The notes below the pieces were generated by a model. That model did no database searches, was not told the DNA's origin, and saw only the letters and a list, made by a program, of their open reading frames with translations. A stretch of DNA of 64,000 nucleotides from Escherichia coli (GTDB taxonomy: Bacteria; Pseudomonadota; Gammaproteobacteria; Enterobacterales; Enterobacteriaceae): assembly GCF_003334765.1 (NCBI RefSeq), contig NZ_QOWT01000008.1; one strand, given 5' to 3'. Both the position numbers and the translations under genes were made by a program. The stretch's first letter is position 1; every line of letters begins with the position of its first letter. This document shows, piece by piece, positions 12,969 to 27,345 of this stretch.

Positions 12969-13003
12969 TTTGCGCCCCGAACGTTGAATGAATTGTGGTT
13001 CTT

Positions 13004-13780
13004 ATGTCCGAAACAAAAAACGAACTTGAAGACCTGCTGGAAAAAGCAGCAACTGAACCGGCGCACCGCCCGGCCTTTTTCCGTACTCTACTGGAATCCA
13101 CCGTCTGGGTGCCTGGTACGGCGGCGCAGGGCGAGGCTGTGGTTGAAGATAGCGCGCTTGATTTACAGCACTGGGAAAAAGAAGACGGCACCAGCGTCAT
13201 TCCTTTTTTCACCTCGTTAGAAGCACTTCAACAGGCGGTTGAAGACGAACAGGCATTTGTCGTAATGCCCGTTCGCACGCTGTTTGAGATGACACTTGGC
13301 GAAACGCTCTTCCTTAATGCCAAACTGCCAACCGGTAAAGAATTTATGCCGCGTGAAATCAGTTTGTTGATTGGTGAAGAGGGAAATCCGCTGAGCAGCC
13401 AGGAAATCCTGGAAGGCGGTGAATCGCTGATATTATCGGAAGTCGCAGAGCCGCCAGCACAAATGATTGATTCACTCACCACCTTATTTAAAACCATTAA
13501 GCCGGTGAAGCGTGCTTTTATTTGTTCAATTAAAGAGAACGAAGAGGCACAGCCTAATTTACTTATTGGCATTGAAGCCGATGGTGATATCGAAGAAATT
13601 ATTCAGGCGACGGGAAGTGTAGCGACCGATACATTACCTGGCGATGAACCAATCGATATTTGTCAGGTGAAAAAAGGGGAAAAAGGAATTAGCCACTTTA
13701 TTACCGAACATATTGCGCCATTCTATGAACGTCGCTGGGGTGGTTTTTTGCGTGACTTTAAACAGAATCGGATAATCTAA
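13004..13780 (+). CDS. sseB: SseB family protein
   Basis: ORF track 12995..13780 (GTG); ATG at 13004 gives 258 aa. Confidence 0.85.
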   Translation: MSETKNELEDLLEKAATEPAHRPAFFRTLLESTVWVPGTAAQGEAVVEDSALDLQHWEKEDGTSVIPFFTSLEALQQAVEDEQAFVVMPVRTLFEMTLGETLFLNAKLPTGKEFMPREISLLIGEEGNPLSSQEILEGGESLILSEVAEPPAQMIDSLTTLFKTIKPVKRAFICSIKENEEAQPNLLIGIEADGDIEEIIQATGSVATDTLPGDEPIDICQVKKGEKGISHFITEHIAPFYERRWGGFLRDFKQNRII

Positions 13781-13802
13781 AATATGCCGCCCAAAGGGCG
13801 GC
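13779..13802 (-). terminator. intrinsic terminator hairpin (gccgccc-aaa-gggcggc) with U-run on the minus strand; ends the leftward transcript and abuts the sseB stop
   Basis: perfect 7-bp GC stem 13786-13802 followed on the minus strand by AUAUUUU. Confidence 0.45.
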
Positions 13803-13960
13803 ATTCGGGCTTACTTGCTGCTCTGAAGGTTGTTAACCACCAGTAAATTGTCGCCGGAGAGACTCCGGTTATTATTTACCTCGGTTAACAGCGCACCAGA
13901 AACAATAAGTACGATACAAAAGCACCGTATCTTCATTGTGCGGTCCATGCGAAGACCGCA

Positions 13961-14035
13961 TCACGACAGCACCACTGGCGATATTGCCGCGATAGCAAGC
14001 GCTGTGAAACACCTGCATTTACGGCCACGGAACAT
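13961..14035 (-). CDS. candidate small ORF (24 aa, MFRGRKCRCFTALAIAAISPVVLS) with basic N-terminus and hydrophobic tail; hypothetical
   Basis: ATG preceded by AGGAAAGG Shine-Dalgarno; lies ~45 nt downstream of a predicted leftward promoter (-10 TATTAT, 14088-14093); stop overlaps the ATG of a second mini-ORF (TGATG). Confidence 0.25.
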   Translation of the reverse strand: MFRGRKCRCFTALAIAAISPVVLS

Positions 14036-14063
14036 CCTTTCCTAAAGCCAGCGCCCGTTTGCG

Positions 14064-14258
14064 AGACGGCGGAAAGGGCCGCAGTGGATAATACACTAAC
14101 AGAACAATAATAACTCTCTTTTGCTTGACAAAAAGAGAGTTACTGGCGAGTATTGTCTCCGCTGAGACGCGCTTGCATTACTACGGTAATACAACCTGCT
14201 GGAAAGGCCGCGAACCGGACCAGCAACAAAAAACCGCCTGATTTTGGCGGTTTTTTGT
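14064..14258. repeat. intergenic module copy 1: promoter -10, AT-rich 10-bp perfect palindrome, conserved core, GC hairpin terminator
   Basis: direct repeat of 14388-14582 with identical blocks (acggcggaaagggcc; ttttgcttgacaaaaagagagttactgg; aacctgctggaaaggccgcgaacc) and a diverged centre. Confidence 0.7.
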
Positions 14259-14402
14259 TTTTTAAAGGAAAGTGAATTTACATGTTTAAGTAATATCTTT
14301 TACCGGTTAGAATTTTTAATTTTGAGCAGGATTTGTTTATATTTGTCTGAATTCGGACTAATAAGCCAGGTTATTTTATTACCGAACACGGCGGAAAGGG
14401 CC
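14099..14402 (-). ncRNA. ryfA: RyfA-like small RNA (~304 nt)
   Basis: sigma70 -10 TATTAT at 14410-14415 (minus) places the TSS at 14402; transcript ends after the palindrome actctcttttgcttgacaaaaagagagt plus U-rich tail near 14099; position between sseA and sseB matches my recollection of E. coli ryfA. Confidence 0.5.
14228..14258. terminator. bidirectional GC hairpin (ccgcc-tgatttt-ggcgg) flanked by A-run and T-run, internal to ryfA
   Basis: aaaaaaccgcctgattttggcggttttttg. Confidence 0.5.
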
Positions 14403-14582
14403 GGTGTCGATAATACGCTAAATAAACAATAATTACTCTCTTTTGCTTGACAAAAAGAGAGTTACTGGTGAGTATTGTTTTGCTGTGAAGCACCTGCGTT
14501 GCTCATGTAACACAAGTCAACCTGCTGGAAAGGCCGCGAACCAGACTAGCAATAAAAAACCGCCAAATTCGGCGGTTTTTTA
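14388..14582. repeat. intergenic module copy 2 (sseA 3' region), paralogous to 14064-14258
   Basis: same block structure as copy 1; hairpin stems conserved while loops differ. Confidence 0.7.
14554..14582. terminator. bidirectional intrinsic terminator downstream of sseA
   Basis: aaaaaaccgccaaattcggcggtttttt; stem ccgcc/ggcgg with U-runs on both strands. Confidence 0.6.
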
Positions 14583-14597
14583 TTGCCTGTAAAATAC

Positions 14598-26131: not shown

Positions 26132-27250
26132 ATGCATAACCAGGCTCCAATTCAACGTAGAAAATCAACACGTATTTACGTTGGGAATGTGCCGATTGGC
26201 GATGGTGCTCCCATCGCCGTACAGTCCATGACCAATACGCGTACGACAGACGTCGAAGCAACGGTCAATCAAATCAAGGCGCTGGAACGCGTTGGCGCTG
26301 ATATCGTCCGTGTATCCGTACCGACGATGGACGCGGCAGAAGCGTTCAAACTCATCAAACAGCAGGTTAACGTGCCGCTGGTGGCTGACATCCACTTCGA
26401 CTATCGCATTGCGCTGAAAGTAGCGGAATACGGCGTCGATTGTCTGCGTATTAACCCTGGCAATATCGGTAATGAAGAGCGTATTCGCATGGTGGTTGAC
26501 TGTGCGCGCGATAAAAACATTCCGATCCGTATTGGCGTTAACGCCGGATCGCTGGAAAAAGATCTGCAAGAAAAGTATGGCGAACCGACGCCGCAGGCGT
26601 TGCTGGAATCTGCCATGCGTCATGTTGATCATCTCGATCGCCTGAACTTCGATCAGTTCAAAGTCAGCGTGAAAGCGTCTGACGTCTTCCTCGCTGTTGA
26701 GTCTTATCGTTTGCTGGCAAAACAGATCGATCAGCCGTTGCATCTGGGGATCACCGAAGCCGGTGGTGCGCGCAGCGGGGCAGTAAAATCCGCCATTGGT
26801 TTAGGTCTGCTGCTGTCTGAAGGCATCGGCGACACGCTGCGCGTATCGCTGGCGGCCGATCCGGTCGAAGAGATCAAAGTCGGTTTCGATATTTTGAAAT
26901 CGCTGCGTATCCGTTCGCGAGGGATCAACTTCATCGCCTGCCCGACCTGTTCGCGTCAGGAATTTGATGTTATCGGTACGGTTAACGCGCTGGAGCAACG
27001 CCTGGAAGATATCATCACTCCGATGGACGTTTCGATTATCGGCTGCGTGGTGAATGGCCCAGGTGAGGCGCTGGTTTCTACACTCGGCGTCACCGGCGGC
27101 AACAAGAAAAGCGGCCTCTATGAAGATGGCGTGCGCAAAGACCGTCTGGACAACAACGATATGATCGACCAGCTGGAAGCACGCATTCGTGCGAAAGCCA
27201 GTCAGCTGGACGAAGCGCGTCGAATTGACGTTCAGCAGGTTGAAAAATAA
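26132..27250 (+). CDS. ispG: 4-hydroxy-3-methylbut-2-en-1-yl diphosphate synthase
   Basis: 372-aa ORF with C-terminal Fe-S Cys motifs ([16 protein letters not shown]). Confidence 0.95.
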
Positions 27251-27252
27251 TA

Positions 27253-27345
27253 ACGTGATGGGAAGCGCCTCGCTTCCCGTGTATGATTGAACCCGCATGG
27301 CTCCCGAAACATTGAGGGAAGCGTTGAGGGTTCATTTTTATATTC
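27253..27345 (+). ncRNA. sroE: possible SroE-like 3'-UTR-derived small RNA between ispG and hisS
   Basis: 110-bp intergenic region; my recollection that an ~90-nt sRNA maps between gcpE(ispG) and hisS; boundaries approximate. Confidence 0.3.

Follow-up and report, generated by a model that had tools for sequence, protein, structure and literature searches.

The spacer between sseA and sseB raises the question of which RNA is made from positions 14099-14402 of the window (the whole stretch of DNA analysed, 64,000 nucleotides) and from which strand. An earlier note, made from the sequence alone, had placed there a single RyfA-like sRNA on the - strand, starting from a -10 element at 14410-14415 and ending either at a GC hairpin (~180 nt) or at an AT palindrome near 14105 (~300 nt). 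K-12-like E. coli chromosomes carry the stretch at 100% identity, and around 14099-14402 it consists of the sseA–sseB spacer of the E. coli K-12 type. Coordinates were converted by taking the MG1655 position as 2667937 minus the window position. In the MG1655 RefSeq record (NC_000913.3) the spacer contains timR (b4811), ryfA and the timP CDS; inside 14099-14402 neither IS128 nor any other feature is annotated, and the RNA called TimR-2 below has no entry there.

The interval is not a single gene; it holds two elements, an IS128 stub (-) and a TimR copy (+). We consider it likely that 14226-14403(-) represents what is left of a second timP (ryfA) toxin gene, a fossil without a function of its own, and that the functional RNA of the interval is TimR-2(+). 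The grounds are paralogy, a deletion junction, a lack of structure and conservation, and an RNA with mapped ends on the opposite strand. The features are listed in Table 1.

Table 1. Features of the sseA–sseB spacer and its flanks, in window positions.
Feature	Position	Strand	Basis
sseB	12995-13780	+	
ryfA = timP mRNA, intact paralogue downstream	13779-14082	-	Rfam RF00126, 314.9 bits; RefSeq annotation
timP CDS	13811-13936	-	RefSeq annotation
Inverted repeat, arms 14111-14122 and 14131-14142	14109-14144	both	12-bp arms
TimR-2, second, unannotated TimR antitoxin sRNA copy (= IS129 / ECS011 / ES141)	14159-14258	+	ECS011 reads, Northern, Term-seq, fold
Bidirectional intrinsic terminator, paralogue of the sseA/TimR-1 terminator	14225-14259	both	14-nt perfect arms, folds, Term-seq
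AT-rich spacer, IS128 'body'	14260-14374 (115 nt)	-	27% GC
sseB 3'-end duplicate remnant, 13 nt, GTTCGGTAATAAA	14375-14387	- (antisense orientation)	AH50/Santai fragment ends
15-nt stub of the ryfA/timP mRNA 5' end, GGCCCTTTCCGCCGT	14388-14402	-	Identical to ryfA 14080-14066
-10 hexamer TATTAT of the relic timP/ryfA-type (IS128) promoter	14410-14415	-	Homologous to the ryfA -10 at 14088-14093
TimR-1, annotated timR (b4811), best K-12 timP match	14482-14583 (RefSeq annotation 14482-14581)	+	RefSeq, ES139, Term-seq 2653354
sseA	ends 14598	-	

The locus was identified with the Rfam covariance models. The IS128 model (RF00125, gathering threshold 80 bits) scored 262.1 bits at 14214-14422(-), and the match ran from end to end of the model (positions 1-209 of 209) at the same locus between sseA and sseB. 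The ryfA model (RF00126), even at E <= 1, matched only 13779-14082 and nothing in 14099-14422. The description as RyfA-like is therefore correct for the promoter and the first 15 nt and fails for the remainder, which belongs to the existing family IS128. IS128 is said to have been predicted by Chen et al. in 2002. The Rfam coordinates begin upstream of the -10, and the likely 5' end of the RNA is ~14403; at the other end, the interval proposed in the earlier note runs ~115 nt beyond the IS128 3' end, into timR-2.

Two direct repeats were found in the spacer. The longer one (91 nt, 90% identical) relates 14066-14156, which contains the true ryfA promoter and 5' end, to 14388-14478, and bears out the proposed ryfA-like promoter and 5' end. 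The shorter one (64 nt, 84% identical) relates 14192-14255 to 14518-14581. Both have a spacing of 322-326 bp, and together they identify the spacer as two tandem copies of one module consisting of a terminator, timR, divergent promoters and the start of ryfA.

The TATTAT hexamer is present at the predicted position and is followed on the - strand by GGCCCTTTCCGCCGTGTTCGG. For comparison, timP loci of other species were retrieved using a DNA pattern derived from the Rfam ryfA consensus (six loci, four of them relevant). The sequence GTATTAT lies just upstream of GGCCC, at equal distance, in the timP loci of Citrobacter, Superficieibacter and E. whittamii, and TATTAT at 14410-14415 is thus the homologue of the -10 of the real timP promoter. 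GTATTAT is also consistent with the annotated 5' end of ryfA. A promoter/terminator scan had instead proposed TTGTCA-16-TATTGT promoters; these were rejected as the main promoters, since TATTGT is not kept in Citrobacter and Superficieibacter, whereas GTATTAT is. Between the relic promoter and that of the full-length, sseB-proximal timP in strain AH50, two of ~75 positions differ; across the stretch compared, the relic promoter is identical to its counterpart in strain Santai. It probably still fires. The supplement text of the Cappable-seq and SMRT-Cappable-seq studies holds no entries at its coordinates. Homology to ryfA ends after the 15 transcribed nucleotides (at 14388).

What follows the stub is explained by strains with a fuller arrangement. 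AH50 (L007) and O157:H16 Santai (L017) carry two complete timR-timP modules in the order sseA, terminator, timR, ryfA/timP, 87-bp sseB fragment, AT-rich body, terminator, timR, ryfA/timP, sseB. The 87-bp fragment is a pseudogene of the sseB 3' end, finishes with GTTCGGTAATAAA or a near-identical string and abuts the body; the same GTTCGGTAATAAA string is present in the intact sseB of the window. The fragment/body junction reads ...ATATGTTCGGTAATAAA|ATAACCTGGCTTATTAG in AH50 and GGCCCTTTCCGCCGT|GTTCGGTAATAAA|ATAACCTGGCTTATTAG in K-12. Comparison of the two shows that K-12 keeps 15 nt of ryfA and the last 13 nt of the sseB fragment, followed by the body. The equivalent of 357 bp present in AH50, which spans the ryfA leader in full along with the TimR site and the timP ORF, is missing from K-12.

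The AT-rich body was searched for in 5426 complete E. coli genomes and was found in 2244 of them (41%), in one place each and always at this locus. The other ~59% have a single timR-timP module and no such body. The single-copy loci of E. whittamii, Citrobacter and Superficieibacter do not contain it either, and it gave no match among phage records; the sole match in a plasmid collection was a 4.9-Mb E. coli record that is evidently a chromosome. The K-12-type stub is at least 95% identical in ~1,700 genomes. This uniformity reflects clonal relatedness, although constraint may also play a part.

A third class of strains (L004, L008 and L009; ~340 genomes as judged by identity bands) keeps a TimR gene and the body and has lost the timP-type promoter; strains of the L004 type keep both TimR genes. 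Taken with K-12, this class points to at least two losses of the upstream toxin copy, with the antitoxin gene retained in each case. In K-12 a type-1 stub lies upstream and a type-2 TimR beside a type-1 timP leader, an arrangement that no single deletion in the sampled full tandems can produce. Compared with AH50, the K-12 ryfA has a promoter (100%) and an ORF (99.2%) like those of the upstream copy and a leader (98.6%) like that of the downstream copy. On these identities the K-12 ryfA looks chimeric, and recombination or gene conversion would be needed besides deletion.

The body was indeed AU-rich, as the earlier note had described: the GC content of 14260-14385 is 27% against 52% for the window and lies in the lowest 0.5% of 126-nt windows. 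Its predicted fold showed no structure beyond chance when compared with shuffled sequence (z = +0.70). The z-score of the whole IS128 RNA (-3.49) arises because the terminator is included. Among five IS128 sequence variants no compensatory changes were found; some pairs were broken and there were two 1-nt indels. No segment of the locus is less conserved than the body, which is 88.8% identical between K-12 and L004-type strains; timR-2 and the promoter region reach 96-97%, and timP, sseA and sseB 95-98%. No TimP-like ORF was found among the open reading frames of 14099-14402. Beyond the shared terminator, no complementarity of the stub to TimR-1 or TimR-2 was found: the 5' parts of TimR-1 and TimR-2 paired with it only in scattered places (-11.6 and -20.4 kcal/mol, respectively), against -40 to -50 kcal/mol with ryfA. 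The RNAduplex energies of the TimR copies with timP leaders given below were computed on short segments.

The GC hairpin with its U-run is a terminator, as had been predicted. Its arms (14225-14238 and 14246-14259) are 14 nt each and 100% complementary, A-tracts and U-tracts flank it on both sides, and its 3' flank on the - strand is UUUUUUGUU. It terminates in both directions, and its documented use is only for TimR-2 on the + strand. The TimR-side U-tract is invariant in the five variants; the IS128-side tract is interrupted (TTATTT) in two of the five. The promoter/terminator scan missed both bidirectional terminators of the spacer because the A/U tracts are taken up into the stem when it is extended.

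The AT palindrome near 14105, taken in the earlier note for the end of the longer transcript, proved to be an inverted repeat (14111-14142) with the loop TTGACA. This loop, at 14125-14130(+), is the -35 element of timR-2, and the divergent promoters of timR-2 and ryfA have the palindrome as their common -35 region. The string CTTGAC is kept across genera; the arms are not kept beyond E. coli and E. whittamii. In the scan the palindrome is flagged on the - strand as a weak hairpin of terminator type followed by a U-rich tail. This is the sole support for a ~300-nt end, and the palindrome lies outside every mapped RNA. A ~300-nt transcript would need to read through a strong terminator and to run antisense across the RNA at 14159-14258 into the ryfA promoter.

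Published transcript data were then placed on the window. The original IS128/IS129 Northern analysis used a double-stranded probe and gave bands of 90-95 nt (Shinhara et al., 2011, PMC3175480); these bands match TimR instead. A strand-specific probe against the IS128 body gave no signal and there were zero IS128 reads among RNAs of <200 nt; Shinhara et al. (2011, PMC3175480) accordingly labelled IS128 as an artefact or condition-specific. The same study reported a read cluster, ECS011, on the strand opposite to IS128, with bands of ~95 and ~100 nt detected by a copy-specific probe (PMC3175480). We placed this cluster exactly at 14159-14229(+).

A Term-seq 3' end at MG1655 2653679(-), labelled "antisense IS128" (Adams et al., 2021, PMC7815308), corresponds to window 14258(+), at the hairpin. 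It is strong throughout, with scores of 107,037, 48,011 and 208,460 in three conditions (PMC7815308). The 3' end of TimR-1 (window 14583; 2653354) was recorded in minimal medium only, with a score of 34,005, and the IS128 strand had no 3' end in any of the three conditions (PMC7815308). In a further RNA-seq study, transcripts ES139 (101 nt, level 10.5) and ES141 (101 nt, level 30.6) were described (Rau et al., 2015, PMC4676190); ES139 is TimR-1, and ES141 is window 14159-14259, at three times the level of TimR-1. The weak + strand transcript ES140 spans 14309-14402. In the same strand-specific data sense-strand IS128 had a value of 4.4, compared with 12.7 for RyfA, falling in late growth (PMC4676190), from which it follows that some IS128 transcript exists. 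Overexpression of IS128 had no effect in a screen for biofilm, motility and fimbriae (PMC4606813).

The RNA demonstrably made from the coordinates 14099-14402 is thus that of the + strand, and a - strand product is at best rare. The treatment of 14099-14402 as one sRNA unit has to be given up, as its last ~100 bp encode another RNA on the opposite strand. The two isoforms of ~180 and ~300 nt find no support in the published transcript maps, which put the sRNA elsewhere: the mapped ~100-nt RNA lies on the opposite strand at 14159-14258.

In the published type I toxin-antitoxin system TimPR, TimR uses its 5' end to pair with 18 nt of the timP leader, and translation is blocked via destabilization of a pseudoknot (PMC7667032, PMC11228461). 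TimR-1 and TimR-2 are predicted to have one architecture: the terminator and a CUGCUGG...CCAGC hairpin are common to both, and the difference lies in the pairing region at the 5' end. Against the K-12 timP leader (the ryfA 5' UTR), TimR-1 gives 16 contiguous base pairs at -40.4 kcal/mol; for TimR-2 the value is -33.4 kcal/mol, and by hand alignment its 19 bp include two mismatches and three G·U pairs. For the type-2 timP leader allele found in single-copy E. coli strains the ranking is reversed: TimR-2 matches perfectly (-44.0 kcal/mol) and TimR-1 pairs poorly (-20.4 kcal/mol). TimR-2 would accordingly be weaker than TimR-1 on K-12 timP, judging by computed duplex energies only. TimR-1 sits 320 bp farther from K-12 timP than TimR-2 does, and IS128 and TimR-2 overlap by ~35 nt at their common terminator.

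The following picture is proposed. An intact timP-type promoter and 15 nt of mRNA were joined to 13 nt of an sseB duplicate and the 115-nt AT-rich spacer by a deletion (357-bp equivalent), with the loss of the entire toxin ORF together with the pseudoknot elements and the site bound by TimR. A transcript of the stub would halt at the terminator of the next module, and the resulting product of ~176 nt is expected to be unstructured, AU-rich, rare or unstable, quickly degraded and functionless. TimR-2 is transcribed from the TTGACA promoter in the palindrome loop and ends at the same bidirectional hairpin; published mapping shows that it is abundant. The distal TimR-1 would be the perfect partner of K-12 timP, the 5' end of TimR-2 fitting the allele of single-copy strains.

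Three other explanations were weighed against this one. That the -10 at 14410-14415 drives a genuine trans-acting RyfA-like sRNA, with a ~180-nt form and a ~300-nt read-through form, appears highly improbable. Points in its favour are an intact promoter with homology to functional timP promoters, a canonical terminator, the standing of the locus as an Rfam family and a weak, growth-phase-dependent sense signal in one RNA-seq data set. The strand-specific probe gave no band, however, small-RNA reads number zero and Term-seq has no 3' end, while the bands first seen came from a double-stranded probe and have the size of TimR (90-95 nt). The body, moreover, has no structure, covariation or conserved seed and is the least conserved segment; it occurs in only 41% of E. 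coli genomes, is absent from the other sampled genera and is kept without the promoter in ~340 genomes, and overexpression produced no phenotype. It is scarcely credible that the stub encodes a 29-aa protein (GTG at 14389, MFGNKITWLISPNSDKYKQILLKIKNSNR). Both small ORFs named in the earlier note do exist in the sequence, and the 29-aa frame is open in K-12 as well as in the full-tandem strains, where it starts with an ATG inside the sseB fragment. The start has no Shine-Dalgarno sequence on its 5' side, though, and K-12 and AH50 differ by three non-synonymous and two synonymous changes (hand count). In L004-type strains the frame loses its start, with an in-frame stop ahead of the region, and its C-terminus is put out of frame by a 1-nt insertion, so the call of this region as non-coding stands; the frame is an accident of the deletion junction.

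A role in cis, in which firing of the relic promoter tunes the antitoxin and hence TimP, either through competition with the back-to-back timR-1 promoter or through convergent transcription or an antisense end directed towards timR-2, is unlikely. In its favour, the relic and timR-1 promoters have an upstream region and a palindrome in common, the ~35-nt overlap brings IS128 and TimR-2 together at the terminator, TimR-1 is scarcer than TimR-2, and ES140 (14309-14402, +) suggests some read-through in the opposite direction. Yet every normal timR-timP module has the same divergent layout and requires nothing special, the IS128-side U-tract has decayed in some lineages, and L004-type strains have lost the promoter and kept both TimR genes. 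A deleted timP copy opposite an expressed TimR-2 is the explanation that we prefer.

As first stated, the candidate sRNA matters little: Rfam already lists it as a family, and doubts about its reality were raised in 2011. For curation, the best description of IS128 is a remnant of a deleted timP copy that still bears a promoter, rather than an sRNA gene, and TimR-2 is absent from MG1655 RefSeq though its Term-seq and RNA-seq signals exceed those of the annotated timR. Work on TimP that uses "timR" deletions in K-12-type strains has to reckon with two copies that differ in pairing to the toxin mRNA. It is possible, rather than probable, that K-12-type E. coli (~1,500 complete genomes) keep two TimR antitoxins of differing specificity around a single toxin gene, TimR-2 being largely orphaned, TimR-1 the true partner of timP and IS128 the scar of the toxin copy. 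If this is true, the perfect target allele of TimR-2 exists only in other strains, TimR-2 would be free for other targets or for cross-protection against incoming timP alleles, and the locus would preserve a natural record of a toxin lost, an antitoxin kept and specificity reshuffled by gene conversion.

The IS128 family, its doubtful status, the antisense ~100-nt RNA and timPR are already known. In the literature searched we found no statement that IS128 is a timP remnant, nor one that K-12 has two TimR copies of which the proximal one is mismatched. The reading of IS128 as a remnant beside two TimR copies is a curation-level addition and not a new kind of system. With the RyfA/timP mRNA (RF00126) the stub has in common the promoter with its GTATTAT -10, the first 15 transcribed nucleotides and a position divergent from a TimR gene; the leader with SL1-SL4, the pseudoknot partners, the site for TimR and the timP ORF are all absent from it. 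The RNA at 14159-14258(+) resembles TimR (Salmonella STnc2070) and RyfB1 and RyfB2 in its length of ~100 nt, its divergence from ryfA, the intrinsic terminator and the conserved CUGCUGG...CCAGC hairpin; its 5' end is perfectly complementary to the type-2 timP leader and imperfectly so to that of the adjacent K-12 timP. The K-12 RyfB and RyfC, which we take to be shoB and ohsC, were set aside as unrelated to the Shigella RyfB1/2; they lie ~45 kb away in published coordinates.

S. dysenteriae also has two TimR-type copies with differing 5' ends, as in K-12; there RyfB1 and RyfB2 are 60% identical and RyfB1 is specific for RyfA1 (PMC5333039). The K-12 stub is a deletion derivative, unlike the sibling pair RyfA1/RyfA2 of that species (PMC5333039). 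K-12 differs further in that the timP-adjacent TimR-2 pairs imperfectly, the perfect partner, TimR-1, is distal and only TimR-1 is annotated. Tandem duplication of small-toxin/sRNA modules, with divergent pairing regions and decay of a toxin copy, is a theme of the E. coli type I toxin-antitoxin loci zorO-orzO/zorP-orzP, ibs-sib and inactivated hok-sok. Compared with zorO-orzO, ibs-sib and hok-sok, it is here the toxin copy that has been deleted, while its promoter, the antitoxin and the next module are intact.

Only the sseA-proximal copy of the antitoxin sRNA TimR (TimR-1, b4811) is annotated in MG1655 RefSeq; the ryfA-proximal copy (TimR-2) carries no annotation there. In published Term-seq (PMC7815308) and RNA-seq (Rau et al., PMC4676190) the signal of TimR-2 is several-fold higher than that of the annotated copy. 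At its 5' end TimR-2 is a better match for the timP allele that other E. coli strains carry than for the one of K-12.

The timP mRNA gene of K-12, ryfA, was compared with the spacer of strain AH50, which holds two full timR-timP modules. The promoter (100%) and the timP ORF (99.2%) match the upstream AH50 module, and the 5' UTR, including the TimR site, matches the downstream module (98.6%). On these identities K-12 ryfA looks chimeric, and patchy gene conversion between tandem copies is suggested as the source of the mosaic.

Coordinates of the features discussed (window positions unless a strain is named)
Feature	Position	Strand	Remark
TimR-1	14482-14583	+	
TimR-2	14159-14258	+	
K-12 ryfA, region compared with AH50	13779-14158	-	
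Perfect inverted repeat	14111-14142		12-bp arms; flanks promoter -35s
Perfect inverted repeat, copy 1	14435-14464		10-bp arms; flanks promoter -35s
ES140	14309-14402	+	94 nt
C0614	14399-14485	+	
Spacer deletion, E. coli 06-00048	about 1150-1360		
ISEcB1 insertion, BL21(DE3)	about 669-720		
Antitoxin-model matches of TimR copies	14503-14584 (+), 14225-14300 (-)		Sub-threshold; mostly terminator
naRNA4, iscRS stability element, sroE	5507-5578, 6295-6404, 27250-27341 (+)		Above threshold

In E. coli 06-00048 the spacer has collapsed through a deletion, with the crossover within the 16-nt CAGGCACCCCACAGTG. This sequence is present twice, in one place as the complement of the 5' end of TimR and in the other as the target site in timP. 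The complementarity between antitoxin and target thus amounts, in the DNA, to a direct repeat, through which the two promoters can be lost together with the initial ~65 nt of ryfA. The IS3-family element ISEcB1 was found in the loop of the bidirectional sseA/TimR-1 terminator in BL21(DE3) and also in 06-00048. A single GGCGG arm is left beside timR-1 in both strains, so TimR-1 should be without a terminator in them.

The timR and ryfA promoters are divergent and their -35 hexamers overlap; the inverted repeat encloses these hexamers and lies, at both positions, beyond the bounds of every mapped RNA. It could be a protein-binding site, but conservation of the arms was absent in Citrobacter, Superficieibacter and O157-type E. 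coli.

Two further transcripts have been reported nearby. ES140 (Rau et al., PMC4676190) is weak, runs antisense to the body of IS128, the stub of a lost timP copy, and has its end precisely at the start point expected for the relic promoter; it could arise from TimR-2 read-through or from spurious initiation in AT-rich DNA. C0614, an old array-derived sRNA, falls in the promoter region directly upstream of TimR-1. Its RNA-seq signal is nearly nil, and it is probably a detection of TimR-1 with wrong boundaries.

naRNA4, the iscRS stability element and sroE, the further above-threshold Rfam matches in the window, are all expected in this region of the K-12 chromosome. Rfam holds no TimR family; against its models of other type I antitoxins, the TimR copies reached 29.6 bits for AgrB, 28.8 for OhsC and 25.8 for OrzO-P.
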